28,147 bases of DNA from a bacterium (GTDB lineage: Bacteria; UBP7; UBA6624; JBBIMK01). Under the pieces are notes generated by a model that was not told the DNA's origin, did no database searches, and worked only from the letters and a program-made list of their open reading frames with translations. The stretch's first letter is position 1. Each line of letters begins with the position of its first letter. A program made the translations under genes and the position numbers. This document shows positions 4,554 through 19,149 of the stretch, one piece after another. The DNA is taken from positions 1 to 28,147 of the forward strand of contig JBBIMK010000027.1 of NCBI GenBank assembly GCA_037444445.1. Reading direction: 5' to 3'.

Positions 4554-4734
4554 GGTATTCTTTTCACTAATGCTGATTCCGAATTTCCCATTTGTTCAAC
4601 ACGGTCGCACTTTCCCGGACACCTGAAAAAATGATTCTTCAGGCATACAGGTTCAAGTGAGTTACAAAATATTTGCAGAGGGGAATAAACCCAGGGAATT
4701 GAGTGGAACTGCATCCGGGGTGCAGGGGTTGGAT

Positions 4735-6357
4735 TTACTCCCTGAGGATGGTAGAGAAAGCGTCCTTCATTCGCTGGATAGCTTTTTCAACCAATTCTTT
4801 CACCGTGGAACCATCATCGGGGAAACTGCTTGCGCCCCAGGCTAACCTCAACGAGCGCAGTTCCCTGCCGAATAAAATGAGGGGTTTGCTCTCAAAAGCA
4901 GTTCTGATGCGTTTTGCGGCAATCTGGGCATTGGGATATGGAGTGACTGGAAGAAGGATGAGGTAGGAATTTTCACCGTAGCGGGAGATAAAATCAGATG
5001 CCCGAAGGTTGCTGGTGAGCGTGAGATAAACAGCCCGAAGCGCTGATTCAGAAGTTTTATCTCCGTATTTTTCCTGAATGCGAGCATAATCAGGAAAGTG
5101 AACATAAAGGCAGGACAATTTTTCGTTGTAGCGACGGGCACGGCTCACTTCTTCAATGAACCGATAGTTGAACAGACGCCAGGTATAAGCCCCTGTGGGC
5201 TCATCCGTGATGACATTTTCCCCCATCTTTTCGTAGGTATAAATAGAATCTATCACAGGAGAAAGAATCTGAGCGGCAGTGGATAAAAAGCGAACATCCG
5301 ATGGGTCCAGGCCCTTCTTTTCCTTTGCCAGAAAAAGAATAAACCCCAGGTCCTTATCCAGAAAGGACAGAGGCAAAAAAGCCAAAAAAGTCATTCCAGT
5401 CGCCTCTATAACAGGGTGCAAAGGATGTTCCACGGGCATATCCGAATAGAAGGAAGGGTTCTGAGAAAGAATTGCCGCATCCAGTTGTTTCTCCTTCCTG
5501 GAGATTTTCCACTCCAACAGGGACTCAGGAAGGTGTCTGACCCCCCGGACCCAGTATTCCTGGTCCTGGCGAATGGCTATCAGGGATGCATCAAACTCTG
5601 GAAAGCAGTCTTCCAGAATTTCCAGAACCTTCTTCGGATAAGTTTGTGGATGAGTGAGGGTTCGGAATCCCTCACCAATTCGGCTCAGGAGGTTGAATTT
5701 TCTGGATTCCTCAATGCGTAACTGGAGGAGGGATTCCAGGAAACCATAAAAGGGATAAGCAGGAGATTCATCCGGGAGGGCATCGGGAAGAGTTTTCAAT
5801 GCCGATTGAACGACCTTCGGGTCCCACTGCCGTCCGCTCTGGTCTTGAAGGATCTTTTTGGCTTCCGTGGAGGAAACACGACGGCGATGAGCACGGGAAT
5901 GGGTGAGCGCTTCAAAGGCATCCGCAACGGCGAGGATTCTCGCTCCCAGCGGGATTTCTTCTTCCCGGAGCCCCTGCGGATAACCCGTGCCGTCCCAGGC
6001 TTCATGATGATGCCGAATCCACAGGGGAGCATCCTCCCCCAGGCCGGGAATTTCCTTTGCCAGCAGATATCCGGCTTCCGAGTGGAGATGAAGAACCTGA
6101 CGCTCTTCCGCAGTCAGGGGTTCCGGCTTGAGGAGGATGGCTTCCGGCACAGCCCCCTTTCCGATGTCATGAAGCAAGGCAGCGATATGCAATTTCTCCA
6201 CATCGGGGAACTTCATAGCTCTGGCGATGGCCACCGCATATTCCGCCACTCGCAGCGAATGCCCCCACTTGAACGGGTCCTTCACCTCTACCGATGCCGC
6301 CCAGGCCCGGTAAAAGTCCTTTTCCAGACCTTCTTTACGACCGAAAAAAATTGCCAT
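4735..6357 (-). CDS. Cyclic-di-GMP signalling protein with N-terminal HD-GYP phosphodiesterase, central GAF-like domain and C-terminal degenerate GGDEF domain
   Basis: HD-GYP motifs are HDIGK (res 63-67) and HHHEAWDGTGYPQG (res 116-129). The GAF-like stretch covers about res 200-375. The GGDEF fold begins at DEPTGAYTWR, but the signature reads GENSY (res 461-465) instead of GGDEF. An RxxD motif (RASD, res 452-455) is kept at canonical I-site spacing. Confidence 0.88.
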   Translation of the reverse strand: MAIFFGRKEGLEKDFYRAWAASVEVKDPFKWGHSLRVAEYAVAIARAMKFPDVEKLHIAALLHDIGKGAVPEAILLKPEPLTAEERQVLHLHSEAGYLLAKEIPGLGEDAPLWIRHHHEAWDGTGYPQGLREEEIPLGARILAVADAFEALTHSRAHRRRVSSTEAKKILQDQSGRQWDPKVVQSALKTLPDALPDESPAYPFYGFLESLLQLRIEESRKFNLLSRIGEGFRTLTHPQTYPKKVLEILEDCFPEFDASLIAIRQDQEYWVRGVRHLPESLLEWKISRKEKQLDAAILSQNPSFYSDMPVEHPLHPVIEATGMTFLAFLPLSFLDKDLGFILFLAKEKKGLDPSDVRFLSTAAQILSPVIDSIYTYEKMGENVITDEPTGAYTWRLFNYRFIEEVSRARRYNEKLSCLYVHFPDYARIQEKYGDKTSESALRAVYLTLTSNLRASDFISRYGENSYLILLPVTPYPNAQIAAKRIRTAFESKPLILFGRELRSLRLAWGASSFPDDGSTVKELVEKAIQRMKDAFSTILRE

Positions 6358-6396
6358 CCCTGCTTTTATTAACTCTTTTTGGCCTGTCTTGTTGCT

Positions 6397-6425
6397 ATTA
6401 TATTAAATCCTCTGTGAAAAGTCAA
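6397..6425 (-). promoter_or_regulatory. Near-consensus sigma70 promoter for the HD-GYP gene (TTGACT-N17-TATAAT on the minus strand)
   Basis: The -35 TTGACT is the complement of 6420-6425 and the -10 TATAAT is the complement of 6397-6402, with a 17-nt spacer. The -10 lies about 40 nt upstream of the ATG at 6357. Confidence 0.5.
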
Positions 6426-6438
6426 TAGAGAACATCCA

Positions 6439-6454
6439 CCGGGTGAAAACCCGG
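6439..6454 (-). terminator. Weak hairpin after epmA (CCGGGT-GAAA-ACCCGG)
   Basis: A 6-bp GC-rich stem with a 4-nt loop sits 34 nt past the epmA stop, just upstream of the promoter above. The downstream tract on the minus strand (TGGATGTTCTCT) is only moderately T-rich. Confidence 0.3.
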
Positions 6455-6487
6455 AAAACACCACGCCATCGCAGGCGGAAAAAATCA

Positions 6488-7864
6488 TCATCTACGGGAT
6501 AGGGAAAATGGCAAGACAGAAGCAAGAGTGGGATACTCAAATAGAATCATCAGTAATCTGTCCACACCAACAGCCACGCCGGCGCAAGAGGGCAGGCCAT
6601 AAGCCAGTGCTCTCAAAAATTCAGTCGGCAAGCCACGAATTGAACGTTCTTTCAACTCTTGCCGAAATCTCTTAGCTTGTTCCCGAGTCTCTGTGAGTTC
6701 TGAATAGCCATTCGCTAATTCTATTCCAGCGATGTAAAGCTCAAATCGCTCCAGTGTGGAAGGGTCATCTTTTTTGGGTTTTGACATCGTGCCGAGTTCA
6801 GCAGGATAGTCGTAGAGGAAGACCGGACGGCGGATTCCCAGATTCGGCTCCACACGCTTCGTCAGCAAGTAGAAATAAATGTCCTTCCAGGCAAAGCCGG
6901 GGGCAGCGGTTTTCACTTCCTCTGAAACCATTTCTGGCAGATGGTAAAAATCCGCGGTCCGGTAAATCGGTAAGCCAGTGTAACGACGAAAGACATCTAC
7001 CAGTTTCCATCTTTCCCAGGGTGGAGTGAAATCAACCCGGTGGCTCATCCTGTTTACCACAGTCTTACCACACAACTTCCTCACCAGAAAATAAAGCAGG
7101 CTTTCCACCTCCTTCATCAGGGTCAGATAATTAGCGTCAGAACGATACCACTCCAGAAGGGTGAATTCTGGATTATGAAGGGGACTGAACTCTCCCTGAC
7201 GAAAAACGGGCGCCAGTTGAAAGATTTTCCGGCACTCAGCCACCAGTAACATCTTCATAAAGTATTCGGGAGAAGACTGAAGATAATATCGGCGTTTCCT
7301 GCCTCCGATGTGAAGAAATGCAGGAATAGAGTGGATTCCCGGGTCCAAAGCAGGATAGGGGTGGAGAATGGGGGTTTGAACCTCCAGATATCTCCTTCGC
7401 CGGAAGAAGGCCCTGATGGCATCATAAAGGGAAGCCCTTTGCGGGAGAATCTTAGGGTTTTTCAGCCCCCAGAAAAAGTCTTCCCACGAGGAACGAGTGG
7501 CGGGAAGACCACGGTAGCGATAGAGCAGATGAACACTTTCCGCAACCGCCTTACCTTTTTCAATCCTCTGCCCGGACCGACGGGATTTCGCTCCACTCCA
7601 GCAGGCGAGGACTGCCACCCGGTCACCCAACCGAAGGGCGAGAGGATGTGAGGAAAAAAACTTTATGATTCCAGTGGCATCGCGAAGCCAGAGAACACTC
7701 CCCGAAGAAGATGGGAACAGGGCAATCACCCGCCCGCATACACAAGAGCGGAGGGGTTTTTTCTGCAAAAACTCTTGAATGGTGCACGAAAAAGCCCCCA
7801 AAAAAAGAGAAGACCCACGGGACCTTTTTCGAACCCCTTTCTCCTCCCATTTGGATTTTTTCAT
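6488..7864 (-). CDS. epmA: EF-P (R)-beta-lysine ligase-like class II aminoacyl-tRNA-synthetase paralog (EpmA/GenX/PoxA type) with an extra N-terminal OB-fold-like region of about 140 aa
   Basis: The catalytic core matches E. coli EpmA blocks SSPEYFMKMLLVAECRKIFQLAPVFRQGEFSPLHNPEFTLLEWYR, ERFELYIAGIELANGYSELT and GVAVGVDRLLMIL. The N-terminal CGRVIALFPSSSGSVLWLRDATGIIKFF resembles the anticodon-binding OB fold of LysRS/AspRS. The start is uncertain because the SD AAGGAG abuts the ATG. Confidence 0.8.
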   Translation of the reverse strand: MKKSKWEEKGVRKRSRGSSLFLGAFSCTIQEFLQKKPLRSCVCGRVIALFPSSSGSVLWLRDATGIIKFFSSHPLALRLGDRVAVLACWSGAKSRRSGQRIEKGKAVAESVHLLYRYRGLPATRSSWEDFFWGLKNPKILPQRASLYDAIRAFFRRRRYLEVQTPILHPYPALDPGIHSIPAFLHIGGRKRRYYLQSSPEYFMKMLLVAECRKIFQLAPVFRQGEFSPLHNPEFTLLEWYRSDANYLTLMKEVESLLYFLVRKLCGKTVVNRMSHRVDFTPPWERWKLVDVFRRYTGLPIYRTADFYHLPEMVSEEVKTAAPGFAWKDIYFYLLTKRVEPNLGIRRPVFLYDYPAELGTMSKPKKDDPSTLERFELYIAGIELANGYSELTETREQAKRFRQELKERSIRGLPTEFLRALAYGLPSCAGVAVGVDRLLMILFEYPTLASVLPFSLSRR

Positions 7865-8203
7865 CTCCTTCGCAATCCCTCAATGATTAGCATAGCACCC
7901 TTTTTAGCCCGAGTGTATTGGTTTTGTTCATACTACTTCAGTATCCTGACTCACCAGAAGCACGGATTTAATCCGAACTCCAGCCGGGTTATGGGTGAAA
8001 CTGGTTTTTATAATGGTGTGATTTCTATCTCATTTTCTATTGATATAAGTCATCCAATTGGCTGAATGAAAGATGATAAGATGATGATGGTGAGCGGTAA
8101 ATAAAGGAAACAGGAGGGAAAGTTCGGTTTTATCAACATTCAAGATTAAAGAAAAAGGACAATGGAGGTGGACGACCTCAAAAATTCAGGATAGGAGGTA
8201 TTC

Positions 8204-8890
8204 ATGAAGGAAAGAGATGAAAAAACAGTTTTACGATTAAGTATTCAGGTGAGAGTCCAGCATTTTCTACTTATGCTCAGTGTTACTATGCTCATCCTGA
8301 CGGGCCTTGCTTTGATGTACAGCGATAGTTGGTTAGGAAAACTGATGATTTTCCTGGAGGGAGGGTTTGAAACCCGGGGATTCCTCCATCGGATTTCTGC
8401 AATCCTTCTCTTTCTCGGAGTGATTTACCATTGGCTGTATATTTCGTTGACGCGGGAGGGTCACGAAGAATTTTTACAGATTCTGCTTCGCCTTCAGGAT
8501 TTTCGGGACCTTGGGCATGCAGTGCTTTATGATGTTGGGCTACGAAGCCAGCCTCCACAATTTGGGAGGTATGGATACCGGGAGAAATTTCAATACTGGG
8601 CTATGGGCATATTAATTTTATTGATGCTGTTTTCTGGAATTATCCTCTGGTATCACAACTTTTTTCTCGGCGTATTGCCTAAATGGGCTATGGATTTGAC
8701 ACTGGTTGTTCACGGTTCTGCAGGCACTATACTCTTTCTCTTTCTGGTTCTCTGGCACTTTTATATGGTTCACTGGGCTCCTGGAAAGTTTCCCTTCTCT
8801 ATGACCTTCTGGCATGGCAAAATTACTCAGGAAGAGTGGGAAAGAGAGCATCCTCTGGAATGCATGCAGAAAAAGAATGAAAATCAGTAA
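8204..8890 (+). CDS. Membrane b-type cytochrome, 4-TM FdnI / Ni_hydr_CYTB-like (copy 1)
   Basis: A strong SD AGGAGG at 8193-8198 lies 5 nt before the ATG. There are four hydrophobic helices with conserved His residues (RVQHF, LHRISA, VHGS...WHFYMVH) in the pattern of diheme b subunits. It is a clear paralog of 9940-10929. Confidence 0.8.
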   Translation: MKERDEKTVLRLSIQVRVQHFLLMLSVTMLILTGLALMYSDSWLGKLMIFLEGGFETRGFLHRISAILLFLGVIYHWLYISLTREGHEEFLQILLRLQDFRDLGHAVLYDVGLRSQPPQFGRYGYREKFQYWAMGILILLMLFSGIILWYHNFFLGVLPKWAMDLTLVVHGSAGTILFLFLVLWHFYMVHWAPGKFPFSMTFWHGKITQEEWEREHPLECMQKKNENQ

Positions 8891-9938
8891 GGTTTGGGGA
8901 GTGATATTCCTGATCGGGGGCATGGTGGCGGTAGAGGCTGTTCCCGGCTTTGCCCAGGTAGACCCCTTGCGGCGTTGTCTTCTATGCCACGGGAAAGCGG
9001 GTTTTAAAGAGGTATTAGAGGGCGGTAAGGAACGACCGCTCTACATTGATGTAGAGGATTTTAGAGGTTCCGCTCATGGCAATATGGTTTGCACTATATG
9101 CCATACAGATGTGCGAACGATACCTCATTTGAGCCGGCCACGAAGGATTCACTGTCTCCAGTGTCACTACGAAGGAAATGTGGTTGGGGCTCCTGTGGAG
9201 AGAAAACCGGAGAAATACAAAGAAAGCGTCCACGGGAAGGCACTGGAAAAGGGCGACCCCAGGGCTCCGGACTGCCGGGATTGTCACACTTCTCATTCTG
9301 TGCGTCAAGCCTCAGATTCTGCCTCTACTGTGAATAAAAGGCATGTGCCTGAAACCTGCGGCCGCTGCCATCTCTCCGTGTTCACTGCTTACTCCCAGAG
9401 TGTGCACGGAACCGCCCTATCCAAAGGGATTCTGGAATCTGCAGCCTGCTCCGATTGCCACCGAGAACATGACCTTCTACCCAAGGATGACCCTCGTTCC
9501 TCTCTATACCCTCAAAATGTTGCCAATACCTGTGCTACCTGCCATCAGAATGAAACCCTGATGAGAAAACTGGGCATCCCTGTCAAGCAAGTGCAGGCAT
9601 TTAAGGAAAGCTTCCACGGTGTTGCCATAGAATTTGGTTTTCTCAAGGTTGCCAACTGCGTAAGTTGCCATGGTTATCACGATATACTTCCACAGTCTGA
9701 CATTCGTTCTTCTATCCATCCCACCAATCTGGCAAAAACCTGCGGGAAATGCCATCCCAGGGTTACGGCGATGGTGGCCAGAGGAAAAATTCATGTCCTG
9801 CCTACGGAACCATCTTCTGGAATTGTCTATTGGGTGAGCCAGTTCTTCAAATGGTTCACCATTCTGGTTCTCTTAGGGTTATTTTTACACATTCTTTTGG
9901 ACCTCTTTGGTCGTTTCCGCGCCCATAGGACGACCTGA
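8877..9938 (+). CDS. Nonaheme c-type cytochrome with N-terminal signal peptide and C-terminal TM anchor
   Basis: Nine CXXCH motifs are present (CLLCH, CTICH, CLQCH, CRDCH, CGRCH, CSDCH, CATCH, CVSCH, CGKCH). The signal-like N-terminus is MKISKVWGVIFLIGGMVAVEAVPGFAQ. The hydrophobic C-terminus is IVYWVSQFFKWFTILVLLGLFLHILLDLF. I chose the start at 8877, which overlaps the upstream stop by 14 nt. The track start at 8814 lies inside the cytochrome b gene. Confidence 0.9.
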   Translation: MKISKVWGVIFLIGGMVAVEAVPGFAQVDPLRRCLLCHGKAGFKEVLEGGKERPLYIDVEDFRGSAHGNMVCTICHTDVRTIPHLSRPRRIHCLQCHYEGNVVGAPVERKPEKYKESVHGKALEKGDPRAPDCRDCHTSHSVRQASDSASTVNKRHVPETCGRCHLSVFTAYSQSVHGTALSKGILESAACSDCHREHDLLPKDDPRSSLYPQNVANTCATCHQNETLMRKLGIPVKQVQAFKESFHGVAIEFGFLKVANCVSCHGYHDILPQSDIRSSIHPTNLAKTCGKCHPRVTAMVARGKIHVLPTEPSSGIVYWVSQFFKWFTILVLLGLFLHILLDLFGRFRAHRTT

Positions 9939-9939
9939 T

Positions 9940-10929
9940 ATGATGTCATACCCTGACGAAAATCCTCCCCGGGAGCCCCAAGGGGCAAAAATTCCACCGC
10001 AGAAGGAGAATCTCGCTCAGCGAATTCAGAAAGTTTTTTCGGATTTAGATTATCCCCTGGACGAGGAGATTGTAGAGGAAATCCTGCAGGATGTTCGGAA
10101 AAGAGTTGAACAGGAAATTGTAAAACAAAGAAGGAAAGAAGAAAAAGAACGCCGGGAGGCGAGAGAATTCGTTACCCGATTTAACCTGAATATTCGGGTT
10201 CAACACTTTCTTTTAGCGGTGGCTGTGCTTCTTCTTATTTTCACTGGCTTACCCATAAAATTTCACGAGTCAGCGTGGGCAGATATCTATTTTCGCTTCC
10301 TGGGCGGGTTATCCCTCAGCCGGTGGCTTCATAGATTGGCTGCCATCCTGCTGACGGGAATCAGCCTGTATCATCTTTTCTATATCTCTTTTCATCCGGA
10401 AGGAAAAAGAGAGTTTCGGCTGATGATTCCCACCCGGAAAGATTTCAAAGATTTTTGGCAGAATATTCGGTTTTATCTGGGATTATCCAGTCAGAAACCG
10501 AAATTTCACCGCTTTTCCTATGTGGAAAAATTTGATTACTGGGCGGTTTACTGGGGTGTAGTTATTATGGTTGTTTCCGGTTTTCTTCTCTGGCTTCATG
10601 ATTGGACCCTGGCAATCCTCCCGAAGTTCATCCTGGATATTGCCCGGGAAGTTCACTCGGATGAAGCGTTCCTGGCCACGGTGGCAATTATTATGTGGCA
10701 CTTTTATAATGTCCATCTGAATCCTCACAATTTTCCATTCAACCCCAGCATCTTTACAGGCAAGATTTCTCGGGAGAAAATGCGAGAGGAGCACCCACTG
10801 GAATATGATGAAATATTCATTGAAACTCTTACAACTGCTTCAACTTCTCACACTACCGCAGTAGCCACATCCTCACCATCCTCTGAAGATTCTTCCCCTC
10901 CTCCCGAACCTTCTGAGCATCACCTATGA
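9940..10929 (+). CDS. Membrane b-type cytochrome, FdnI / Ni_hydr_CYTB-like (copy 2) with a charged N-terminal extension and an S/T/P-rich C-terminal tail
   Basis: The core RFNLNIRVQHFLLAVAVLLLIFTGLP...LHRLAAILL...VHSDEAFLATVAIIMWHFYNVH is collinear with copy 1. The ATG at 9940 lies 1 nt after the upstream TGA (9936-9938). About 80 K/E/R-rich residues precede TM1. The C-terminal tail is TASTSHTTAVATSSPSSEDSSPPPEPSEHHL. Confidence 0.8.
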   Translation: MMSYPDENPPREPQGAKIPPQKENLAQRIQKVFSDLDYPLDEEIVEEILQDVRKRVEQEIVKQRRKEEKERREAREFVTRFNLNIRVQHFLLAVAVLLLIFTGLPIKFHESAWADIYFRFLGGLSLSRWLHRLAAILLTGISLYHLFYISFHPEGKREFRLMIPTRKDFKDFWQNIRFYLGLSSQKPKFHRFSYVEKFDYWAVYWGVVIMVVSGFLLWLHDWTLAILPKFILDIAREVHSDEAFLATVAIIMWHFYNVHLNPHNFPFNPSIFTGKISREKMREEHPLEYDEIFIETLTTASTSHTTAVATSSPSSEDSSPPPEPSEHHL

Positions 10930-12947
10930 AAATCAAGTGGTCTCTATGGTTTCCAGTCACTCTGGTTTTATTTTTTGTGCTGTTTATTACCGGGAAAGCC
11001 ACGGATTCTCCGTCTTTTTGTGGTTCCTGCCATTATATGAAGCCTTTCTATGAAAACTGGCAAAGTTCCAGCCATGCCCGGGTGAACTGCAATAAATGTC
11101 ACTATGCAAAGGGGTTCCGTGGCTACATAAGGGGAAAAATGGCACTTCTCGGAGAGATAACAAAATACTATACTCACACCTACACACTTACCCCTCATGC
11201 CAGAATAGAGGATGGGAATTGTCTAACCTGCCACCCTTTCAAAAAACTTGGCGAAAAAATCACATATCGCAGGAACATACCATTCCGTCATCAGAGCCAC
11301 TATGATAAAGTTTCACGCGGTATCCGCCTGAGGTGCACTTCCTGTCATTCCGAACTGGTTCAAGGAAGCCATACCGCCGTGACAGAATCTTCGTGTTTCT
11401 ACTGCCATTTCATCGGCGTGGCATTTCGCCAACCCCTGTCGGAGTGCAACACCTGTCATGGTTCTCCTGCTGAGGAAATACTGCTTCAGGGAATGAAATT
11501 CAGTCATTCTAAGTTTCTGAAAACCGGTGTGGATTGTTTGACCTGTCATGTGGAGGTAGTCAGCGGTGCAGGAGATGTGCCTCAGGAAAAATGTCGTACC
11601 TGTCATATTCAACGGGAATTAGCCTGGAGTGAGGCTCAGAAACTGCACCAGGTTCATGTGACTCAACAATCTGTGAAATGCAATTCTTGCCACACCGAAC
11701 TGACGCACGGAAAAATTCAAATGCTGGAAACTCTATACCCGGAATGTCGTTCCTGTCATGGAGCCATGCATACCCTTCAGGAACAAATATATATGGGCAC
11801 CTTTCCTATCGGGGGTGAGGAACCCTTACCTGACCCGATGTTTCTGAGTGGCGTGGACTGCACTGCCTGTCACCTTTCTCAGGAATCTATGGGGATTTCT
11901 CAGCACCCCAGAAAACTTGCCAGGGCATCTCCTTCCGCTTGCCTAACCTGTCACCCTGAAGGGTTCAACCAACTTTTAATCGCCTGGCAAAACGATGTTC
12001 AAAGCGAAGTCCAAAATCTGGAAAAATTCGTAGATTTTCTCGGGCGAGTGACTCAGGATGAAAAGACACCGAAAAACTCTCAAAAAACAATGCGAACAAA
12101 AGAATGGAAAGAAATTCAACAGGTTCTCCATTCTATTCGTCAGGATGGCAGTTGGGGTGCGCACAACATTCGCCTGACCTTTCATCTTTTGTCTTTCGCC
12201 TATTCAAAAATCTCAGAAGAATATTCTCGTCTCAGTGTGCCTCCGTTTCAACCCCTACCGGAAACTCGGTTTTTTATCTCCCTCTATGGTTGCAATGAAA
12301 CCTGCCATGTGGGCGTTGAACGCAAATCTGTTCTCCAAAAAGAATGGGTTTTCCCCCATGATATTCATCTCTTCAAAGCCAGCCTGGACTGCAATACCTG
12401 TCATTCCACTGAACCCGTGGAAACAAGTACCCATGGTAAATCCCTGTTCACTGCTTCCTCCTGTTCCTCCTGTCATCATTCAGCAAAATGGAAGAGAACT
12501 TGCGTCTCCTGTCATCCGGTTCAGGCTCAGATGTATTCGGGTTCCGTATGGGGAGAGAACTCTCCGGATGCGATGCAATCCGTCGGAATCACCTGCGAAA
12601 TGTGTCACCAAAATGAAAAGGGGGAAATCATCCGCTTCTCCGTGAACAGTTGCCTCTCCTGCCACGAAAATTCTTCCGTGGATGAAATGAGGAACAAACA
12701 GCAAACCATTCGGCAGTCATTAAAAATAGTGGAACAAAACCTGACGATGGCTCAAACTCAGTTGCTATCAGAAAAGGGTAAATCTCTATTAGAAAATTGG
12801 AGAAACCTATACACACTGAAGGAAATCCTGGAGTGGCTCAAGAAGGATGGTAGTTGGGGTGCCCACAACTTGATACTTTCACAAAGGTTGTTAGAGAAAA
12901 TCCTCCCGCCATCAGAAGAGTTGCGAAAAGAGAAGGAGAATTTATGA
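10926..12947 (+). CDS. Large membrane-anchored multiheme c-type cytochrome (17 CXXCH plus 1 CX3CH) with a NapC/NirT/NrfH-like N-terminus
   Basis: It has an ATGA start/stop overlap with the upstream gene. An N-terminal TM helix (WSLWFPVTLVLFFVLFITG) is followed by CGSCHYM...SSSH...CNKCH, as in NapC/NrfH anchors. I counted 17 CXXCH by eye plus CNETCH. The octapeptide DGSWGAHN occurs twice. Confidence 0.9.
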   Translation: MKIKWSLWFPVTLVLFFVLFITGKATDSPSFCGSCHYMKPFYENWQSSSHARVNCNKCHYAKGFRGYIRGKMALLGEITKYYTHTYTLTPHARIEDGNCLTCHPFKKLGEKITYRRNIPFRHQSHYDKVSRGIRLRCTSCHSELVQGSHTAVTESSCFYCHFIGVAFRQPLSECNTCHGSPAEEILLQGMKFSHSKFLKTGVDCLTCHVEVVSGAGDVPQEKCRTCHIQRELAWSEAQKLHQVHVTQQSVKCNSCHTELTHGKIQMLETLYPECRSCHGAMHTLQEQIYMGTFPIGGEEPLPDPMFLSGVDCTACHLSQESMGISQHPRKLARASPSACLTCHPEGFNQLLIAWQNDVQSEVQNLEKFVDFLGRVTQDEKTPKNSQKTMRTKEWKEIQQVLHSIRQDGSWGAHNIRLTFHLLSFAYSKISEEYSRLSVPPFQPLPETRFFISLYGCNETCHVGVERKSVLQKEWVFPHDIHLFKASLDCNTCHSTEPVETSTHGKSLFTASSCSSCHHSAKWKRTCVSCHPVQAQMYSGSVWGENSPDAMQSVGITCEMCHQNEKGEIIRFSVNSCLSCHENSSVDEMRNKQQTIRQSLKIVEQNLTMAQTQLLSEKGKSLLENWRNLYTLKEILEWLKKDGSWGAHNLILSQRLLEKILPPSEELRKEKENL

Positions 12948-13441
12948 ACACAGCGAAAGTAAAAACATATTTTCGGATTCAGCTTACGAATAATAACCTA
13001 ACACAGGTCTTACCAAAAAGATGCAGGCTCATGGCAACGGTGGCATGGCTGGTCATCTGTTCCGGTGGGTTCCTCAATGTAAAAATTACCAATGAAGAGT
13101 GTATAGCCTGTCATGAAGGAGTGGAGAAAATAGCACCTGTGCATGAAAAGGTTTCCTGCCAGGATTGTCATCACGACATCCAGGAGATTCCGCACTCTGT
13201 TCCAACGCAACGGATTGATTGCCTCCGATGCCATCAAGAATTGATGAATTTATGGGTAGGGGACCCGCACCTTGCGGCGAGAGAAAAAGGAAATAAGAAT
13301 GCTCCCGACTGTCAGACCTGCCACGGGAAGCACGACTTGAAAACCTGGGGGAGAAAAAAGGCGGAAACATCAGAAATTCAACGACAAAGAGTGCAAATCT
13401 TTTGCAACACCTGTCACATGGCCGCCTTGGTGGAAGTGTAA
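12944..13441 (+). CDS. Pentaheme c-type cytochrome, secreted or membrane-tethered
   Basis: It has an ATGA overlap with the upstream stop, and SD AAGGAG at 12933-12938 lies 5 nt before the ATG. Five CXXCH motifs are present (CIACH, CQDCH, CLRCH, CQTCH, CNTCH). A hydrophobic segment MATVAWLVICSGGF follows a basic N-region. Confidence 0.85.
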   Translation: MNTAKVKTYFRIQLTNNNLTQVLPKRCRLMATVAWLVICSGGFLNVKITNEECIACHEGVEKIAPVHEKVSCQDCHHDIQEIPHSVPTQRIDCLRCHQELMNLWVGDPHLAAREKGNKNAPDCQTCHGKHDLKTWGRKKAETSEIQRQRVQIFCNTCHMAALVEV

Positions 13442-13568
13442 TTGCCAAAATACTTATCCAGAAGTTCCCGACTCTTTTAAGATAATTCAGGCTTTTGAGG
13501 AGATTTTTCGCGCAAAATTTTCTTCTCCTGTCTACCCTCTTTCCTCTCACTTTTAGGGTTCATTTACC

Positions 13569-13910
13569 TCACTCCTCCGCAGGGCCATCCAGTTTTCTGC
13601 TTCCATTCTGGTAAAGCATAACCACGGCATTCGCGCGGGATTTATCAGCACACACGCGAGCCTGCTTCCGTTCTAATTCTACCGGACCCTTTTTCACCCT
13701 GCAAAAGCCGAATTTCTCAAAGTATCCTGTCAAATCTGTAGTGATGTAAACTTCATCCGAGGGAAAATGTTTTATGAGGTAATGGACGATAGTTTTGCCG
13801 ATGCCCTTTCCCCGGTATTCGGGCAGGACGCCCAAACAGCCAAGTTCATAGCAATCCCCGTGAGGGCGGATACGACCGAATCCTACGATGACACCGCCTT
13901 TCTTGGTCAT
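13569..13910 (-). CDS. GNAT-family N-acetyltransferase, N-terminally truncated (possible remnant)
   Basis: The acetyl-CoA-binding core is LGVLPEYRGKGIGKTIVHYLI, followed by YFEKFGF. The protein is only 113 aa and lacks about the first 40-50 residues of a normal GNAT. There is no SD before the ATG, and an in-frame TAA (13944-13946) closes the frame 33 nt upstream. Confidence 0.55.
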   Translation of the reverse strand: MTKKGGVIVGFGRIRPHGDCYELGCLGVLPEYRGKGIGKTIVHYLIKHFPSDEVYITTDLTGYFEKFGFCRVKKGPVELERKQARVCADKSRANAVVMLYQNGSRKLDGPAEE

Positions 13911-13943
13911 AAGAAATTGCCGATGAAAGAGAACTCCGAATCT

Positions 13944-14804
13944 TTAGCGGGGCAGATTTGAACTGGCATTCTCCGGTGCGTTCAGGGGAACGCCGGCGGT
14001 TTCCCCTATATTCTGCGCCGTCACACCTTTATTGAGGTCCAGGATTTTCCCGTTCACGAAGATGGTAGGAGTGGAATTGAACCCCAGGGCCTGGGCAATC
14101 TTCATATCCCGCTCCACCCGGTCCTCCCTGCAGTTTCCTTCCACATTGAGGGCTTTTTTAAAATCTTCTTTATTGTTTCCCTGGGTCACTTCCAGTTTGC
14201 GGACCGCGTCAAAGAAGGCTTCACCGGTGAAGCAACTTGCCACTTCGGCTTTATTTTTTGCCTGGGGATGAATCGGGAGGGGCAAGAATTTATAGTAGAG
14301 GATTATTTTGTCTGAGTTTTTGTCAATAATTTGGTGAAGGTTCTGGAGGGCACGCTTGCAGTAAGGGCAATCCACATCTCCCCAGAAAATAATTCGGACG
14401 GGAGCATCCGGAGAACCTATGGAAAAATCTTTATCTAAAACCATGGTTTCTTCGGGAATCTCAAGAGGTTTTAATTTGCCGGTAGATTGTTGAGTGAGAT
14501 TTACACCGTTCATATCCAGGATGCTCCCCAGGATAAGGTATTTTCCATCCTCGGTGAAATACACTAAAAAGGGTTGCTCACCCTGAGGAATTTTTATCCA
14601 GAGCCTTCGTTGAAGGATACCCGGAAGAGGAGAGGGCTCCAGGGGTTCTATCTGGGTAATCACCAGAGGCTGGCGAAACTGGGCCCTCAAAACCTTCAGC
14701 CAGGGTTCTTCCACAGGTTGAGTGGGCTGAGGAAGGGGAAGGGCCCCTTCTGCTGCCAGTAAGAACCACATCCCTAAAATCATTGCAATTTTTTTTCCGT
14801 TCAT
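13944..14804 (-). CDS. Periplasmic thiol:disulfide interchange protein, DsbC/DsbG-like (N-terminal dimerisation-type domain plus thioredoxin fold with CPYC)
   Basis: The signal peptide is MNGKKIAMILGMWFLLAAEG. The active site reads WGDVDCPYCK, there is a second Cys pair (SCFTGE...GNC), and the cis-Pro loop is STPTIFVNG. I prefer the ATG at 14804, which follows GGTGA. The track start at 14813 is a GTG. Confidence 0.8.
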   Translation of the reverse strand: MNGKKIAMILGMWFLLAAEGALPLPQPTQPVEEPWLKVLRAQFRQPLVITQIEPLEPSPLPGILQRRLWIKIPQGEQPFLVYFTEDGKYLILGSILDMNGVNLTQQSTGKLKPLEIPEETMVLDKDFSIGSPDAPVRIIFWGDVDCPYCKRALQNLHQIIDKNSDKIILYYKFLPLPIHPQAKNKAEVASCFTGEAFFDAVRKLEVTQGNNKEDFKKALNVEGNCREDRVERDMKIAQALGFNSTPTIFVNGKILDLNKGVTAQNIGETAGVPLNAPENASSNLPR

Positions 14805-14886
14805 CCATATCACCCGATAGATAAGTATACCATAACTCTACGGGAGGTATTTCAGGTTCAGGCATAAAAGGTTCAAGGAGGAAGAG

Positions 14887-14915
14887 TTGACAGGAGGAAT
14901 AGATTTATCTAAAAT
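14887..14915 (+). promoter_or_regulatory. Near-consensus sigma70 promoter of the dtxR-feo operon (TTGACA-N17-TAAAAT)
   Basis: TTGACA lies at 14887-14892 and TAAAAT at 14910-14915, with a 17-nt spacer. The first in-frame ATG (14927) is only 11 nt downstream. So either the mRNA is leaderless or nearly so, or translation starts at the internal ATG at 14987 (MEDYLKAIY). Confidence 0.5.
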
Positions 14916-14925
14916 AAAATTTAGA
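14908..14925. promoter_or_regulatory. AT-rich inverted repeat TCTAAA-N6-TTTAGA overlapping the -10 element, a candidate DtxR/MntR-type operator
   Basis: The perfect 6-bp arms are at 14908-13 and 14920-25, giving an 18-bp dyad. It sits over the -10 of the promoter that drives two DtxR-family genes. Function is inferred from position only. Confidence 0.35.
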
Positions 14926-14926
14926 G

Positions 14927-15655
14927 ATGGCTAAACAAAAATATTCAGGCATACTGCTGCTAAGACGGAAGGGGCTCACCGCCCCTATGGAGGACTATCT
15001 GAAAGCCATCTATTCCCTGCAGCAAAAGGGAATGAACGCTACCACCCTTGCTCTGGCAAAAGAGATGAAGGTTTCCCCACCTTCTGCCACTTCCATGATG
15101 AAGAAACTGGCAGATTGGAAATTGGTGCGTCACACTCTGTATCTGGGGGTTCGGCTCACGCCCCTGGGAGAAAAAATCGCTCTGGAAGTCATCCGTCATC
15201 ATCGCTTGTTAGAATTATATCTTTCTCACTCGCTGGGGTATTCCTGGGACGAAGTTCACCAGGAAGCGGAAAAATTGGAGCATTTTATCTCGGAAGATTT
15301 TGAGAGTCGTATGAGCCAGGCGCTGGGGAACCCAAAACGGGACCCCCACGGCGCACCCATACCGACTAAAAAGGGAACCTGGGAGGAGATTCCTTCCTTT
15401 TCCCTTGCCTCCGCTTCCCCGAAAAATTGCCTGATTATGCAAGAAGTGGAGGATGAGGACCCGGAATTACTTCGCTATCTGAGTCAGTTGGGCCTGTATC
15501 CCGGGGTGGAAATTTCCGTGCTGGAAAAACATCCATTTGAGGGGCCCTTATATCTTCGCATCGGAAAATCTCATCATTACCTCGGACATAAAGTCGCTGA
15601 CCGCATTCGTGTCATCCTGAAAAAGAAACGGAGAAAGGAAGTGAAAGAAAAATGA
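14927..15655 (+). CDS. DtxR/MntR/IdeR-family metal-dependent transcriptional repressor with a C-terminal SH3/FeoA-like domain
   Basis: MEDYLKAIYSLQQKG...VSPPSATSMMKKL is the wHTH, HHRLLELYL...HQEAEKLEH is the metal-ligand helix region, and DPHGAPIP is also present. The C-terminal segment LIMQEVEDEDPELLRYLSQLGLYPGVEISVLE is the FeoA-like part. An alternative start is at 14987. Confidence 0.9.
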   Translation: MAKQKYSGILLLRRKGLTAPMEDYLKAIYSLQQKGMNATTLALAKEMKVSPPSATSMMKKLADWKLVRHTLYLGVRLTPLGEKIALEVIRHHRLLELYLSHSLGYSWDEVHQEAEKLEHFISEDFESRMSQALGNPKRDPHGAPIPTKKGTWEEIPSFSLASASPKNCLIMQEVEDEDPELLRYLSQLGLYPGVEISVLEKHPFEGPLYLRIGKSHHYLGHKVADRIRVILKKKRRKEVKEK

Positions 15656-16617
15656 GTCCCTGGTTTTTTATAAAAAAGAAGAAAACAGATACGAAGTGGA
15701 AGCGGGAACTCTTTGAGGATGTTTTGAAGATTCTGTATGCGGAATCGCAGACATCGGAAGGGGCCACGGCAGAATTGCTCGCTAAAAAACTCCATATTTC
15801 AAGCAGAAGAGCGAATCAACTCATTCAAACTTTGCTGGAAAAAGGGCTGGCTACAAAAGACGAGGAAAGGATTCAACTGACTTCTGCTGGAAAAGCCCTG
15901 GGGTTGCATCTGGTGCGGGCACATCGGCTGTATGAACGCTACCTGGCCGATGACACCGGGGTGCCATTAAGGGATATACACCGATTAGCGGACCGGAAAG
16001 AGCATCAATTGACCGAGTCAGAAGTGCAATCTCTGGAAGCCCGCCTCGGATTTCCCGCTTCCGACCCGCACGGCGACTGGATTCCAAACGAGCAGGGTGA
16101 GCCCAGAGTCACAGAAGAAAAACCCATTCTTCTGAACCGGTGGAGCCCCGGAAAACCCGCTCGTATTGTCCACATTGAAGATGAGCCAGAATCCACCTTT
16201 GTCCAAATCCTTTCCGCCGGGCTACTGCCGGGCACTGACATTCTGGTTCAGGAAATTTCTGAACGCGGCATTCACATCACAGTGGATGGAAATGAAATCT
16301 GGCTGGCTCCGGCTCTTGCAGGTCAAATTGAGGTGAATACACCCTTACCGATGAAACAGTCCCTCTGGCTTCGTGCGAAAACTCTATCCCAACTCCAGCC
16401 CGGAGAAAAGGGACGGGTCCTGGCGATTGCCCACCACGTTCGCGGTCTGCCCCGGCGCAGACTCCTGGACCTGGGATTTACTCCGGGTGCTCGCGTAGAA
16501 TGCGCTTTGAAAAGCACTTTCGGTAGAGGAGACCCCTCGGCATACCGCATACGAGGCACAGTGGTTGCCCTGCGAAGAGAACAAACAGAGCAGATTTTCA
16601 TTGAACCAGTGGAGTAG
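15652..16617 (+). CDS. DtxR-family regulator fused to two tandem FeoA domains
   Basis: It has an ATGA overlap with the upstream stop. The DtxR-like part is FEDVLKILY...RRANQLIQTLLEKGL...AHRLYERYL...HRLADRKEH...DPHGDWIP. FeoA-like domain 1 covers about res 159-228 (PGKPARIVHIEDEP...LLPGTDILV). FeoA-like domain 2 covers about res 244-319 (LQPGEKGRVLAI...LGFTPGARVE). Confidence 0.85.
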   Translation: MSPWFFIKKKKTDTKWKRELFEDVLKILYAESQTSEGATAELLAKKLHISSRRANQLIQTLLEKGLATKDEERIQLTSAGKALGLHLVRAHRLYERYLADDTGVPLRDIHRLADRKEHQLTESEVQSLEARLGFPASDPHGDWIPNEQGEPRVTEEKPILLNRWSPGKPARIVHIEDEPESTFVQILSAGLLPGTDILVQEISERGIHITVDGNEIWLAPALAGQIEVNTPLPMKQSLWLRAKTLSQLQPGEKGRVLAIAHHVRGLPRRRLLDLGFTPGARVECALKSTFGRGDPSAYRIRGTVVALRREQTEQIFIEPVE

Positions 16618-16641
16618 AAGGAAGTTTCATCAGGAGGCAAA

Positions 16642-17454
16642 TTGCCTGTATCTCCTCATTCCTGCAAAACCTGCCCGATGTATGTGAACCGATTGGGCGT
16701 AGATGTATCCCGATGGGATTATCTCATTGCCCTGGCAGGAAATCCAAACACGGGGAAAAGCACATTGTTTAACGCCCTCACGGGATTAAAACAGCATATC
16801 GGCAACTGGCCCGGAAAAACAGTTTCTCGCGCAGAAGGAGGATTTCAATTCAACGGAAAAAAGTATAAATTGGTGGATTTGCCGGGGACTTATTCTTTGC
16901 TTTCAGCATCCGAGGAAGAAGAAATTGCCAGGGACTTCCTGCTTTTCGCTAACCCGGATGTGGTGATGATTGTCATGGATGCCACCGCCATTGAGCGGAA
17001 TCTCAACCTGACTTTACAGATACTGGAAATCACTCCACGCTCAGTCCTCGTGTTGAACTTGATGGATGAAGCCAGAAAGAAGGGAATTTATGTGGACCAT
17101 CGGCATCTGGAGACAGAATTGGGCATTCCAGTGGTTCCCATCGTTGCCCGAACGGGAGAAGGATTAAGTTTTCTGATGCAAACAGTTTCGGAAGTCATTG
17201 AAGGCAGAATCTCTCTGAAGCCCAGGCACATCCCTCTGGACTCTGATTTGGAATCCGCGGTTCAGCAATTGCTTCCACTCCTGCAGGAGGCATTCCCTGA
17301 CTTTCCCAATCCTCGCTGGATTGCATTGAGGTTGTTGGATGGGGATGCCTCGGTTTCTGCTGTTCTAACCAGAAATCAGGAGGGAAATGCTTTCAGGAAA
17401 GTGGCGGAAAAAGAAAATGAACAGGGGAGAAGTTTTGACAGAAATAGAGCGTAA
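16642..17454 (+). CDS. feoB: Ferrous iron transporter FeoB, N-terminal GTPase (G) domain plus the start of the helical domain, ending at a stop codon
   Basis: The G1 motif is GNPNTGKST, the G2/G3 region is GKTV...DLPGTYSL, and the helical-domain motif is RWIALRLLDGD. The TTG start at 16642 lies 4 nt after AGGAGG (16632-16637). The N-terminal extension contains CKTC. The ORF stops at 17452-17454, before any membrane domain. Confidence 0.85.
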   Translation: MPVSPHSCKTCPMYVNRLGVDVSRWDYLIALAGNPNTGKSTLFNALTGLKQHIGNWPGKTVSRAEGGFQFNGKKYKLVDLPGTYSLLSASEEEEIARDFLLFANPDVVMIVMDATAIERNLNLTLQILEITPRSVLVLNLMDEARKKGIYVDHRHLETELGIPVVPIVARTGEGLSFLMQTVSEVIEGRISLKPRHIPLDSDLESAVQQLLPLLQEAFPDFPNPRWIALRLLDGDASVSAVLTRNQEGNAFRKVAEKENEQGRSFDRNRA

Positions 17455-18835
17455 ACAGCAAATTTTATTGCAAAAGGCAGATGCACTCCGACGGTCACTC
17501 CATATAGACTTTCGGGACCGGCTTGTAGAAACCATTTACTCTGAAGCCCATCGGATTGCAGAGGCAGTCACGCGAGTGAAACCGAATCCTGCCACCGACC
17601 TCGACCAGCGGATAGACCGCATCGTCACTCACCCTATTTTGGGCTTACCCTTGATGCTTTTGGGCCTGGCTCTCGCTTTCTGGATAACCATTGTGGGCGC
17701 CAACTATCCATCCGAAATGATTGCCCGTCTTTTGTTCGCGGTGGAAAATTATGGGAGCAAATTCTTTGATTGGATGGGCATGCCCTGGTGGGTTACTGGA
17801 TTTCTCTGGAATGGGGTGTATCGCGGCCTTGCCTGGGTAGTCAGCGTGATGCTACCCCCCATGGCAATTTTCTTTCCGCTCTTCACCATTCTGGAGGACC
17901 TGGGCTACCTTCCGCGAGTTGCCTTTAATCTGGATTGGCTATTTAAGAAGGTGGGAGCGCACGGGAAGCAGGCATTAACGATGACGATGGGTTTCGGGTG
18001 CAATGCCGCAGGGGTAATTGCCACACGCATCATTGAATCGCCCCGAGAGCGTCTGATTGCCATTTTGACGAATAATTTTGTTCCCTGCAATGGGCGATAC
18101 CCCACACTGATTATGTTAGGAACGATTTTTGTGGCAGGGGCTTTCCCACCAGCGTTTGCATCGTTTGCCGCCGCCGGCGCTGTGATGGGTTCAGTTCTCA
18201 TCGGCATCTTGTTCACCTTCCTTTCATCCTATCTTCTTTCCCGCACGGTTCTGAAAGGGCAAGCCAGCGCCTTTACCCTTGAACTCCCCCCCTACCGCAC
18301 ACCAAACATCAAGCGTATTTTGTATACTTCCTTTATTGACCGAACAATTTTTGTCCTCTGGCGGGCGATGGTGATGGCCGCTCCCTCAGGTGCTGTCATC
18401 TGGATTCTGGCGAATATCCACATCGGAAATGAAAGTTTGTCCAACATAATCACCCGGTGGCTAAATCCTCTCGGTTACGCCATCGGCCTGGATGGAGTCA
18501 TTCTTCTGGCGTATATCCTCGCCATTCCCGCTAACGAGATTGTTGTGCCCACCATCGTGATGGGCTATCTCAAAGCGGGGATGATGATGGAACTGGAAAG
18601 TCTATCCGAGCTACGGCATCTTCTGGTAGAGCAGGCGGGATGGACTTTGCTCACAGCGATTTGCCTGATGTTATTTTCAGTGCTCCACAACCCCTGCTCC
18701 ACCACCGTCCTGACCATTTACAAAGAAACAGGGAGCAAAAAATGGGCAATCATCGGCGCACTTTTCCCCCTGGGATTTGCCTTTCTAACAACCTTTCTCG
18801 TCGCTTCCATCTGGAGGTTGCTCTTGAGAGGATGA
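17387..18835 (+). CDS. feoB: Ferrous iron transporter FeoB, remainder of the helical domain plus the membrane (gate/permease) domain, in a different frame
   Basis: DQRIDRIVTHPILGLPLMLLGLALAFW is the typical entry into the FeoB membrane domain, and multiple TM segments follow to the C-terminus. This ORF overlaps the upstream ORF by 68 nt in the +1 frame. AGGAGG at 17378-17383 lies 3 nt before the ATG at 17387, and there is another ATG at 17417. Confidence 0.85.
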   Translation: MLSGKWRKKKMNRGEVLTEIERKQQILLQKADALRRSLHIDFRDRLVETIYSEAHRIAEAVTRVKPNPATDLDQRIDRIVTHPILGLPLMLLGLALAFWITIVGANYPSEMIARLLFAVENYGSKFFDWMGMPWWVTGFLWNGVYRGLAWVVSVMLPPMAIFFPLFTILEDLGYLPRVAFNLDWLFKKVGAHGKQALTMTMGFGCNAAGVIATRIIESPRERLIAILTNNFVPCNGRYPTLIMLGTIFVAGAFPPAFASFAAAGAVMGSVLIGILFTFLSSYLLSRTVLKGQASAFTLELPPYRTPNIKRILYTSFIDRTIFVLWRAMVMAAPSGAVIWILANIHIGNESLSNIITRWLNPLGYAIGLDGVILLAYILAIPANEIVVPTIVMGYLKAGMMMELESLSELRHLLVEQAGWTLLTAICLMLFSVLHNPCSTTVLTIYKETGSKKWAIIGALFPLGFAFLTTFLVASIWRLLLRG

Positions 18836-18885
18836 AGTAAGCCGGATGGGGATTGAAAATTCCACCGGCAGGGTGTATAAAATAG

Positions 18886-19149
18886 ATGATGCAATTCTAC
18901 GAATGCACCAGCTGCCCAACCCTGCTGGGGGTGGAAGAGGGCGGGAAACCACCTATGGCTTGCCCGCTGTGCCGGAGCCGAATGGCTTCCATTCCTCCCC
19001 CGGCGGAATTGGTTGAAATGAAGCCCCATTACTGTTCGGAGTGCGGATATACTTTCTCTCTCCCTGCAAGGGTATCCCCATATAAATGCCCCGCGTGTAA
19101 CTGGACTTTTCTACTGACGCCACACAAACGGGCAGAAGAACGCCTGTAA
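18886..19149 (+). CDS. Small (87 aa) double zinc-ribbon protein
   Basis: Four CxxC pairs form two ribbons (C7xxC10...C26xxC29 and C50xxC53...C68xxC71). It lies 50 nt downstream of feoB on the same strand. There is no clear SD, so coding is inferred from the Cys pattern. Confidence 0.55.
   Translation: MMQFYECTSCPTLLGVEEGGKPPMACPLCRSRMASIPPPAELVEMKPHYCSECGYTFSLPARVSPYKCPACNWTFLLTPHKRAEERL

Follow-up and report, generated by a model that had tools for sequence, protein, structure and literature searches.

The known inner-membrane entries to extracellular or periplasmic electron transfer chains, namely CymA, ImcH, CbcL, NrfH and TorC, come from a few Proteobacteria and Desulfobacterota. In NrfH, the roles of Met49, Asp89 and Lys82/83 have been summarised previously (bioRxiv 10.1101/2023.05.03.539133). 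In OcwA from Thermincola potens, hemes 5-9 superimpose on the heme core of NrfA, with a three-helix bundle like that of NrfA coming after them (PMC6703420). Both kinds of element are found in a single gene, here called MHC18 for an 18-heme multiheme cytochrome (MHC), on the bacterial contig JBBIMK010000027.1 (assembly GCA_037444445.1, positions 1 to 28,147); this 28,147-nucleotide (nt) stretch is referred to as the window. The encoded protein is an 18-heme c-type cytochrome that is anchored in the membrane with type-II topology, faces the periplasm and is composed of an NrfH-like head, c7-like hemes and two NrfA-type modules. With a probability of roughly 0.6, it serves as a quinol-linked periplasmic electron conduit. 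The combined architecture appears to be new, as no description of it was found in the literature searched; the NrfH-, c7- and NrfA-type building blocks were already known.

The gene and its parts are as follows, where amino acid (aa) positions refer to the MHC18 protein, TM denotes a transmembrane helix and conservation counts, here and below, refer to an alignment of 120 MHC18 family members.

10926..12947, plus strand: MHC18, the 18-heme cytochrome, 673 aa; its start overlaps the stop codon of the preceding gene, cytb2 (ATGA).
10926..11240, plus strand: NrfH-like head, aa 1-105; TM at aa ~3-27; hemes 1-3 (CGSCHYM, C55, C99); K71 (nt 11136-11138); E77.
11283..11549, plus strand: c7/c3-like heme units, aa 120-208, hemes 4-7; candidate distal ligands H122, H125, H149 and H194 of FxHxxH type.
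11580..12221, plus strand: module 1, aa 219-432; five hemes (C223, C252, C274, C312, C339) and a three-helix unit.
12144..12167, plus strand: first copy of DGSWGAHN, at the turn joining helix 2 to helix 3 in module 1; H413 and N414 invariant (120/120).
12279..12923, plus strand: module 2, aa 452-666; six hemes (C456, C489, C513, C526, C557, C576) and a three-helix unit.
12291..12308, plus strand: CNETCH, heme 13, the first heme of module 2; CXXCH in 99/120 and CX3CH in 21/120 relatives.
12846..12869, plus strand: second copy of DGSWGAHN, at the turn joining helix 2 to helix 3 in module 2; H and N present in all relatives having the region.

The open reading frame (ORF) of 2022 nt is translated without interruption as 673 codons plus a stop, which corrects by one residue the 672 aa given in the first-pass annotation made from the letters alone. 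The other features read there from the sequence were recovered. In particular, hydropathy windows of 19 residues detect one hydrophobic region only, at aa ~3-27, where the AlphaFold2 (AF2) model places a helix at residues 2-25; the first heme site is CGSCHYM (aa 32-38, nt 11019-11039), and 17 CXXCH motifs are accompanied by CNETCH (aa 456-461). The octapeptide DGSWGAHN occurs twice, at aa 407-414 and aa 641-648, and its two 24-nt copies agree at 22 of 24 positions, with both mismatches at synonymous third positions. A nucleotide repeat search extends this match to 24 of 26 nt. An identical 8-mer pair would be expected by chance about 9e-6 times in 673 aa; here, the pair is part of an internal duplication of ~215 residues and not an isolated motif. 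Moreover, two close relatives carry identical or near-identical octapeptides in both modules (DGSLGAHN twice in P0002, DGSWGAHN twice in P0033), so that selection on the motif suffices to explain the nucleotide identity and gene conversion, which may still have occurred, is unneeded.

MHC18 is a real gene. A chance ORF or a decaying gene, in which the heme motifs would be compositional coincidence, found no support and is refuted by full-length homologues with E-values of 1e-142 and lower, by the conservation of 18 heme sites and 17 ligand positions across the 120 sequences, by a copy with 97% nucleotide identity in an independent sequencing run and by an AF2 model with a pLDDT of 84 (pTM 0.67).

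The similarity of the head to NrfH is detected at several levels. The Pfam family PF03264 (NapC/NirT), annotated beforehand on most MHC18 homologues, matches aa 11-87 with 38.7 bits, compared to a gathering cutoff of 24.1. A phmmer search with the single sequence retrieves the Desulfovibrio vulgaris NrfH (2j7a_C) at E = 2e-6, and the whole-family profile (A1) does so at E = 9e-15. A profile of the family's first ~150 residues (A3) matches NrfH at E = 1.6e-13, covering the TM helix, hemes 1-2 and the heme 3 motif (NrfH residues 15-128). In addition, Foldseek superimposes the AF2 model on the same NrfH chain with a TM-score of 0.54 (normalised to NrfH) and a root-mean-square deviation of 3.0 A over 103 columns. 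The proposed relationship of the first ~105-120 residues to the NapC/NirT/NrfH family is thus significant. Met38 of the CXXCHXM motif is invariant (120/120), and K71, which aligns with NrfH Lys82 (Lys83 in Wolinella succinogenes), is a lysine in 114 of the 120 relatives (95%); the quinol-site signature is therefore kept, while the distal residue is variable. Accordingly, when the ligands named in the first-pass annotation are aligned with NrfH, the Met and the Lys are conserved and the position of the distal Asp varies. Judged by these alignments, the head is NrfH-like, and Met is the predicted proximal ligand of heme 1.

Downstream of the head, Pfam Cytochrome_C7 matches aa 120-178 with an overall E-value of 1.3e-24; the histidines H122, H125, H149 and H194 are invariant in the family, and c7-like segments also appear as the second and third self-hits when segments of the A1 alignment (120 family members) are compared profile against profile with hhalign. 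The leading self-hit is the duplication itself: aa 452-666 matches aa 219-432 with 99.9% probability and E = 1.7e-35 over 197 columns, which confirms that two modules each end in the same helix. Conserved residues of module 1 include H241, H244, H261, H282, M305 and H413. In module 2, an extra heme (C526-H530) occupies the place of the conserved H282. The AF2 helices fall at residues 347-377, 391-407 and 415-436 in module 1 and at 582-613, 619-641 and 649-659 in module 2. Both DGSWGAHN segments lie in an equivalent structural context, the turn between helices 2 and 3 of the three-helix unit, as had been anticipated. About one quarter of the aligned family members lack the last helical region. 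Modelled alone, module 2 (pLDDT 87) adopts the identical three-helix arrangement, and its top 11 Foldseek matches all belong to the NrfA superfamily; across the MHC18 models, the leading Foldseek ranks are occupied exclusively by NrfH and the NrfA superfamily.

The best relative of solved structure by sequence is OcwA (6i5b), which the single sequence matches at E = 3.8e-11 (aa 208-440) and the A1 profile at E = 1.6e-28 (profile positions 209-453). In this alignment, the five heme motifs of module 1 pair with OcwA hemes 5-9. Further, a profile of the module 2 tail (A2) gave the following matches.

OcwA: E = 3.9e-18, aligned motif DGSNGVHN.
OmhA (6qvm): E = 4e-13, aligned motif DASHGIHN.
MccA: E = 1e-10, aligned motif DGSWGMHG.
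ONR: E = 9e-6, aligned motif ENSDGFHNP.
NrfA: E of ~1e-4, aligned motif not displayed.

OmhA, MccA, ONR and NrfA match both MHC18 modules in the A1 and A2 profile searches. These matches bear out the resemblance of the G-x-HN helix to the C-terminal helical region of NrfA/HAO-type cytochromes that the first-pass annotation had suggested. DGSWGAHN occurs twice because the module occurs twice, the motif being a hallmark, (D/E)xSxGxH(N), of the helical unit shared by NrfA, ONR, MccA and OcwA. The first-pass annotation had pictured an NrfH-like head fused to a two-module wire of about 14 hemes. The head and the two modules stand; however, the modules hold only five and six hemes, and the other seven belong to the head and the c7-like units. 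The term 'wire' describes a predicted function.

Each of the 18 heme sites is retained in 97% or more of the relatives, with heme 3 taking the form CX4CH in 70/120. The presence of CX3CH in 21/120 makes the spacing at heme 13 a clade variant that is not unique to MHC18. Outside the heme motifs there are 17 conserved candidate axial ligands, which comprise 15 histidines (H50, H122, H125, H149, H194, H241, H244, H261, H282, H413, H478, H481, H503, H518 and H647) and two methionines (M305 and M550). Among the less strictly conserved are H503 (85%), H518 (90%) and position 550 (Met 64%, His 24%, Lys 7%). There are thus as many candidates as there are hemes apart from heme 1, a count that fits a predicted wire with full six-coordination. 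M305 and M550 each lie seven residues ahead of the fourth heme motif of their own module, and M305 aligns with the corresponding Met of OcwA, in which heme 9 has His/Met coordination (PMC6703420); hemes 12 and 18 of MHC18 would then be His/Met as well. A heme-by-heme assignment of distal ligands, by analogy with PpcA and with Escherichia coli NrfA, was tried; the PpcA alignment does not put H503 on PpcA His47, and the ligands are given here as an overall count.

Within the proposed conduit, the head would exchange electrons with menaquinol or menaquinone on the outer, periplasmic side of the membrane, in an electroneutral reaction like that of NrfH. The other 17 hemes would form a protein-bound chain leading to or from other multiheme cytochromes, by way of the c7-like hemes and the two NrfA-type modules. 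Several observations weigh against this assignment. First, the NrfH equivalog model TIGR03153 scores only 44.1 bits on aa 12-103, compared to a cutoff of 134.2, which is far enough below to show that MHC18 is not an NrfH orthologue; the similarity to NrfH in the A3 profile alignment stops past heme 3; and the position of NrfH Asp89 is Glu77 in MHC18 and Gln, Met or Glu in 38, 34 and 30 of the 120 family members. Second, the Foldseek matches are weak, with E-values of at least 2e-3 and TM-scores to NrfA below 0.5 (TMq 0.38-0.47). Third, the number of conserved His and Met residues is no proof of six-coordination: OcwA has enough histidines, yet contains two five-coordinate hemes (PMC6703420), and H282 of MHC18 falls opposite His380 of OcwA, a residue in the HH motif above OcwA's open heme 5 (both HH motifs give the same numbering offset, 29). 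Finally, the 28,147-nt window contains no porin or outer-membrane component, and no experiment on any MHC18 family member was found in the literature.

The alignment of H282 with His380 also favors an alternative in which MHC18 is an enzyme, a single-chain analogue of NrfH-NrfA2, whose five-coordinate heme 8 (C223), heme 13 (CNETCH) or both would use quinol electrons to reduce nitrite, hydroxylamine, nitric oxide, sulfite or a metal chelate. In OcwA, NrfA, ONR and MccA, the portion homologous to the modules houses the active-site heme. The initial heme of each module pairs in the alignment with heme 5 of OcwA, a five-coordinate heme whose proximal ligand is a His. OcwA reduces nitrite and hydroxylamine despite its CXXCH site (PMC6703420). 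In MHC18, the CX3CH motif falls exactly on the module 2 heme that matches the active site, but this is a minority variant of the family. The sequence lacks CXXCK, with His at both module-initial sites in 120/120 relatives; a motif scan found no CXXCK in MHC18 or in the other four proteins of its operon. In the family consensus, the stretch ahead of the fourth heme motif, where NrfA bears its catalytic His and calcium ligands, lacks a conserved His or Arg in both modules. Moreover, every heme from 2 to 18 has a conserved candidate sixth ligand available to it, the module 2 equivalent of H282 is the proximal His of the extra heme, and the genomic context consists of other multiheme and b-type cytochromes and no nitrogen- or sulfur-cycle genes. 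An enzymatic function is therefore considered unlikely.

The conduit reading draws further on the position of MHC18 as the fourth of five tightly packed genes. The remaining four are listed below.

8204..8890, plus strand: cytb1, a membrane b cytochrome of FdnI/HydC type, 228 aa with four TM-like segments.
8877..9938, plus strand: MHC9, with nine CXXCH motifs, a signal-like N-terminus and a C-terminal TM helix; likely start ATG 8877 (ORF start assigned by program, 8814).
9940..10929, plus strand: cytb2, another b cytochrome of FdnI/HydC type, extended at its N-terminus on the cytoplasmic side; likely start ATG 9940.
12944..13441, plus strand: MHC5, a small five-heme c cytochrome with one hydrophobic N-terminal segment; GGAG upstream.

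An AGGAGG sequence lies upstream of the cytb1 ATG. The start of MHC9 overlaps the end of cytb1 by 14 nt, cytb2 starts 1 nt past the MHC9 stop, and the starts of MHC18 and MHC5 each overlap the preceding stop codon by 4 nt (ATGA). Promoter and terminator scans returned nothing informative. PF01292 matches cytb1 at E = 6e-13 and cytb2 at E = 1.6e-12, while TIGR01583 scores 47.8 bits on cytb1, under its cutoff. MHC9 has TM-like segments at aa 1 and aa 315 together with c7/c3 Pfam matches; its homologues adjoin MHC18 genes in most related loci, and a 190-aa homologue of MHC5 comes after an MHC18-type gene in locus L080. Two 50-nt stretches, 8748-8797 and 10691-10740, are 70% identical and mark where cytb1 and cytb2 are homologous near their C-termini (WHFY...H..FPF); a tandem duplication of a cytochrome b gene together with a multiheme cytochrome gene may have given rise to the operon.

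The immediate partners of MHC18 would probably be the products of the same operon, that is, the two FdnI-type b cytochromes, the membrane-anchored nine-heme cytochrome and the five-heme cytochrome. The whole would then act as a quinone-linked respiratory module for periplasmic or extracellular acceptors or donors. The same genes can be read as a redox loop or an electron uptake system: MHC9 and an FdnI-type cytochrome b would reduce quinone on the cytoplasmic side while the head re-oxidises quinol outside, or else the head would run in reverse as a quinone reductase, a direction put forward for NapC/NirT proteins in iron oxidisers, so that energy is conserved or electrons are imported. The operon couples, at the level of translation, two types of quinone-reactive module, and each of them precedes a multiheme cytochrome of its own; this pairing is conserved across phyla, and other relatives have a Rieske/cytochrome b complex as the partner. 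NrfH-type sites release protons on the P-side (bioRxiv 10.1101/2023.05.03.539133), and in Sideroxydans, NapC/NirT proteins are proposed to run in the uptake direction. The case for a loop or for uptake is, however, one of gene content, which parallel quinol oxidases of differing potential, such as ImcH, CbcL and CbcBA of Geobacter, would explain equally, and no fusion of cytochrome b to MHC18 occurs among the N-terminally extended relatives examined. A loop or an uptake role is considered unlikely.

MHC18 is a typical member of a large family and no oddity. In a scan of one genome per species, relatives were present in at least 592 species genomes from ~20 phylum-level groups, and an exhaustive profile search returned 1024 cluster representatives (50% identity) at E <= 1e-30. 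The nearest relatives among the best loci of the genome scan are just 37-42% identical. The 79 best loci include Hydrothermae, WOR-3, Bipolaricaulota, Fraserbacteria, Kryptonia, Bacteroidota, Ignavibacteria, Caldithrix, Zixibacteria and Marinimicrobia, together with Aminicenantes and other Acidobacteriota, Gemmatimonadota, Planctomycetota, Poribacteria and several more. Database labels for the members read only 'cytochrome c3 family' or 'NapC/NirT family'. The profile search also recovered one-module forms with 12 hemes and ~450 aa, ending in the helix motif of module 1; the two-module form probably arose by tandem module duplication in such a 12-heme ancestor.

The gene order cytochrome b, nine-heme MHC, cytochrome b, MHC18 is kept in Hydrothermae, WOR-3, Bipolaricaulota, Kryptonia, Bacteroidota and other groups. 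Neighbourhoods were counted at 78 related loci: an FdnI-type cytochrome b gene lies directly upstream of the MHC18 gene in 32, a bc-type cytochrome b is found within 6 kb in 35 (29 of these with a Rieske protein), and 54 have an FdnI-type or a Rieske/bc-type cytochrome b near the gene. A porin-like ORF amid further multiheme cytochromes is present at 14 of the 78. For example, the island of Candidatus (Ca.) Hydrothermus reads Fer4, NrfD, Rieske, cytochrome b, MHC9 and MHC18, followed further along by cytochrome b, MHC9, cytochrome b, MHC18 and a CbcL-like fusion. In Kryptonia/Ignavibacteria islands (L013 14596-21322 and L041 12008-19492), the MHC18 gene stands with Rieske/cytochrome b or Fer4/NrfD modules; these islands also hold cytochromes with 11, 14, 15 and 6 hemes and a heme-free ORF of 422-441 aa, which at L013:17613-18881 has a weak Porin_4 match, in a layout like that of porin-cytochrome gene sets.

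Two candidate connections within the family were pursued and rejected. A link to nitrate or nitrite respiration was considered in Caldithrix, where the homologue lies outside the published Nap/epsilon-Hao locus; it is convergent with an operon of a c554-like four-heme cytochrome, a bc-type cytochrome b and a nine-heme MHC, and has housekeeping flanks. A 'Rosetta-stone' fusion of cytochrome b to MHC18 was sought as well, and the 325-870-aa N-terminal extensions of relatives contained no cytochrome b domain. As a separate observation, extensions of ~170, 325 or 870 aa precede the head in P0286, P0352, P0357, P0290, P0364 and P0376; one carries a cyclic-nucleotide-binding domain, the others have no Pfam match, and they may be real fusions or gene-calling artefacts.

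A more far-reaching proposal treats MHC18 as a covalent NrfH:NrfA2 complex. Its two modules would pack through their three-helix units to give a pseudo-dimer within one chain, in which the predicted His/Met hemes 12 and 18 make contact in the manner of heme 5 and heme 5' in NrfA dimers. Together with the co-translated FdnI-type b cytochromes and the nine-heme subunit, it would constitute a hitherto unrecognised energy-conserving quinone-loop complex, serving many uncultivated phyla (FCB group, Bipolaricaulota, WOR-3, Aminicenantes) as their principal inner-membrane entry to extracellular electron transfer. This is a speculative extension that is improbable in its entirety.

The operon is part of a larger block that differs between related genomes.

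8035..13921, no single strand: a 5.9 kb cassette comprising the five-gene cytochrome operon and a GNAT gene (13569-13910, minus strand), absent from the related contig L083.

By blastn, the window and L083 are collinear over 94-8034 and 13922-19572 with 83-88% nucleotide identity (93% for PpsA), and a 780-bp segment of L083 (15870-16649) with a uracil-DNA glycosylase gene takes the place of 8035-13921. The guanine-plus-cytosine fraction is ~0.44-0.50 inside the cassette, compared to ~0.50 in its flanks. Repeat searches found no flanking direct repeats at the cassette boundaries, and there was no integrase-like domain among the window ORFs scanned against Pfam. As the cassette is missing in L083, it is an accessory block that was recently gained or lost, in agreement with the patchy phyletic spread of the family; the operon thus appears to behave as a transferable cassette.

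Several other features of the window are noted. A second indel relative to L083 covers 19573-21646, where ~2 kb with a 479-aa DUF4382/DUF5666 ORF (20019-21458, minus strand) is missing from that contig. A gene for a DsbC-like periplasmic thiol-disulfide isomerase (13944-14813, minus strand) adjoins the cassette; it is kept in the cassette-free relative, and so is probably not dedicated to the cassette. Just downstream of the cassette, the interval 14927-18835 contains two tandem DtxR/IdeR-type repressors with C-terminal FeoA domains, followed by a FeoB that is divided over two ORFs, one for the GTPase (16642-17454) and one for the membrane part (17387-18835). L083 has the same division, indicating that it is natural and no frameshift, and the DtxR/IdeR-FeoB arrangement occurs with or without the cytochrome cassette. 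A 420-aa ORF with no Pfam match (25694-26956) lies beside a gene for a CsgG-like secretion-channel lipoprotein (27087-28073). Finally, the phosphoenolpyruvate synthase PpsA (2082-4553) has one close relative (93%); its best named matches otherwise are 63-66% identical and come from Aquificota, Woesearchaeota and Nitrospira. The lineage of the source appears to be sparsely sampled.

If the MHC18 family is indeed a quinol gateway, it would supply a marker gene, along with a mechanism that can be put to the test, for the respiration of metals or electrodes, or for electron uptake, in lineages so far reported only as having 'many multiheme cytochromes'. Its members are almost always linked to quinone modules of b-type cytochromes and to additional multiheme cytochromes. 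A close relative lacks the 5.9 kb cassette, a difference suggesting that genomes exchange this respiratory capacity. The anatomy of MHC18 also makes visible how a large cytochrome is assembled, with an NrfH head, c7 units and NrfA-type modules in one chain and the 12-heme and 18-heme stages both extant, and it is relevant to the 'grafting and pruning' model of how multiheme cytochromes evolve (PMC9250108).

Among the known systems, D. vulgaris NrfH (2j7a/2vr0) resembles the head most closely, with a TM anchor that leads directly to CXXCHXM, and the same spacing to heme 2 and to the conserved Lys (Lys82 in NrfH, K71 in MHC18). However, NrfH is a tetraheme protein of 159 residues that docks on a separate NrfA dimer, whereas MHC18 runs 15 hemes further; besides the TIGR03153 score, it differs from NrfH proper in lacking the tetraheme size and an adjacent nrfA gene with CXXCK. 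Each module finds its best sequence and fold matches in OcwA (6i5b) and in OmhA of Carboxydothermus ferrireducens (6qvm), two cell-surface multiheme cytochromes from the NrfA/MccA clade. OcwA and OmhA, both proposed to act in extracellular electron transfer, share with the modules the five-heme core, the Met seven residues before the fourth heme motif and the DGSxGxHN three-helix unit. Unlike MHC18, they are secreted Gram-positive surface proteins with a c554-like N-terminal module, no quinol head and one module only; the two five-coordinate hemes of OcwA have HH motifs, whereas the MHC18 family conserves a single His (H282). NrfA, ONR and MccA have homologous last two hemes, a homologous helical region and the SxGxH motif (KDGSWGMHG in MccA, ENSDGFHNP in ONR), but are soluble oligomeric enzymes, while MHC18 links two modules behind a membrane anchor. 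In addition, MHC18 has CXXCH or CX3CH at the first heme of each module in place of CXXCK, and in the stretch of its family consensus that corresponds to the calcium site and the catalytic His/Tyr/Arg constellation of NrfA there is no conserved counterpart.

CbcL of Geobacter, a nine-heme c domain fused to an HydC/FdnI-type b cytochrome, has the domain content of MHC9 plus cytb2, which are split genes here; a fused 721-aa version resembling MHC9-cytb2 follows the MHC18 gene in Ca. Hydrothermus. Compared by description, ImcH of Geobacter sulfurreducens is similar in concept, with an NrfH-like quinol site and extra hemes that feed periplasmic cytochromes. A conserved Lys of ImcH overlaps NrfH Lys82, and in its model a Gln distal to heme 1 parallels Gln77, found in 38/120 MHC18 relatives (bioRxiv 10.1101/2023.05.03.539133). 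ImcH differs in having three TM helices, seven hemes, a proximal His at heme 1 and no NrfA-type modules described. Overall, MHC18 would work conceptually like CymA and ImcH, as an extended quinol-site cytochrome.

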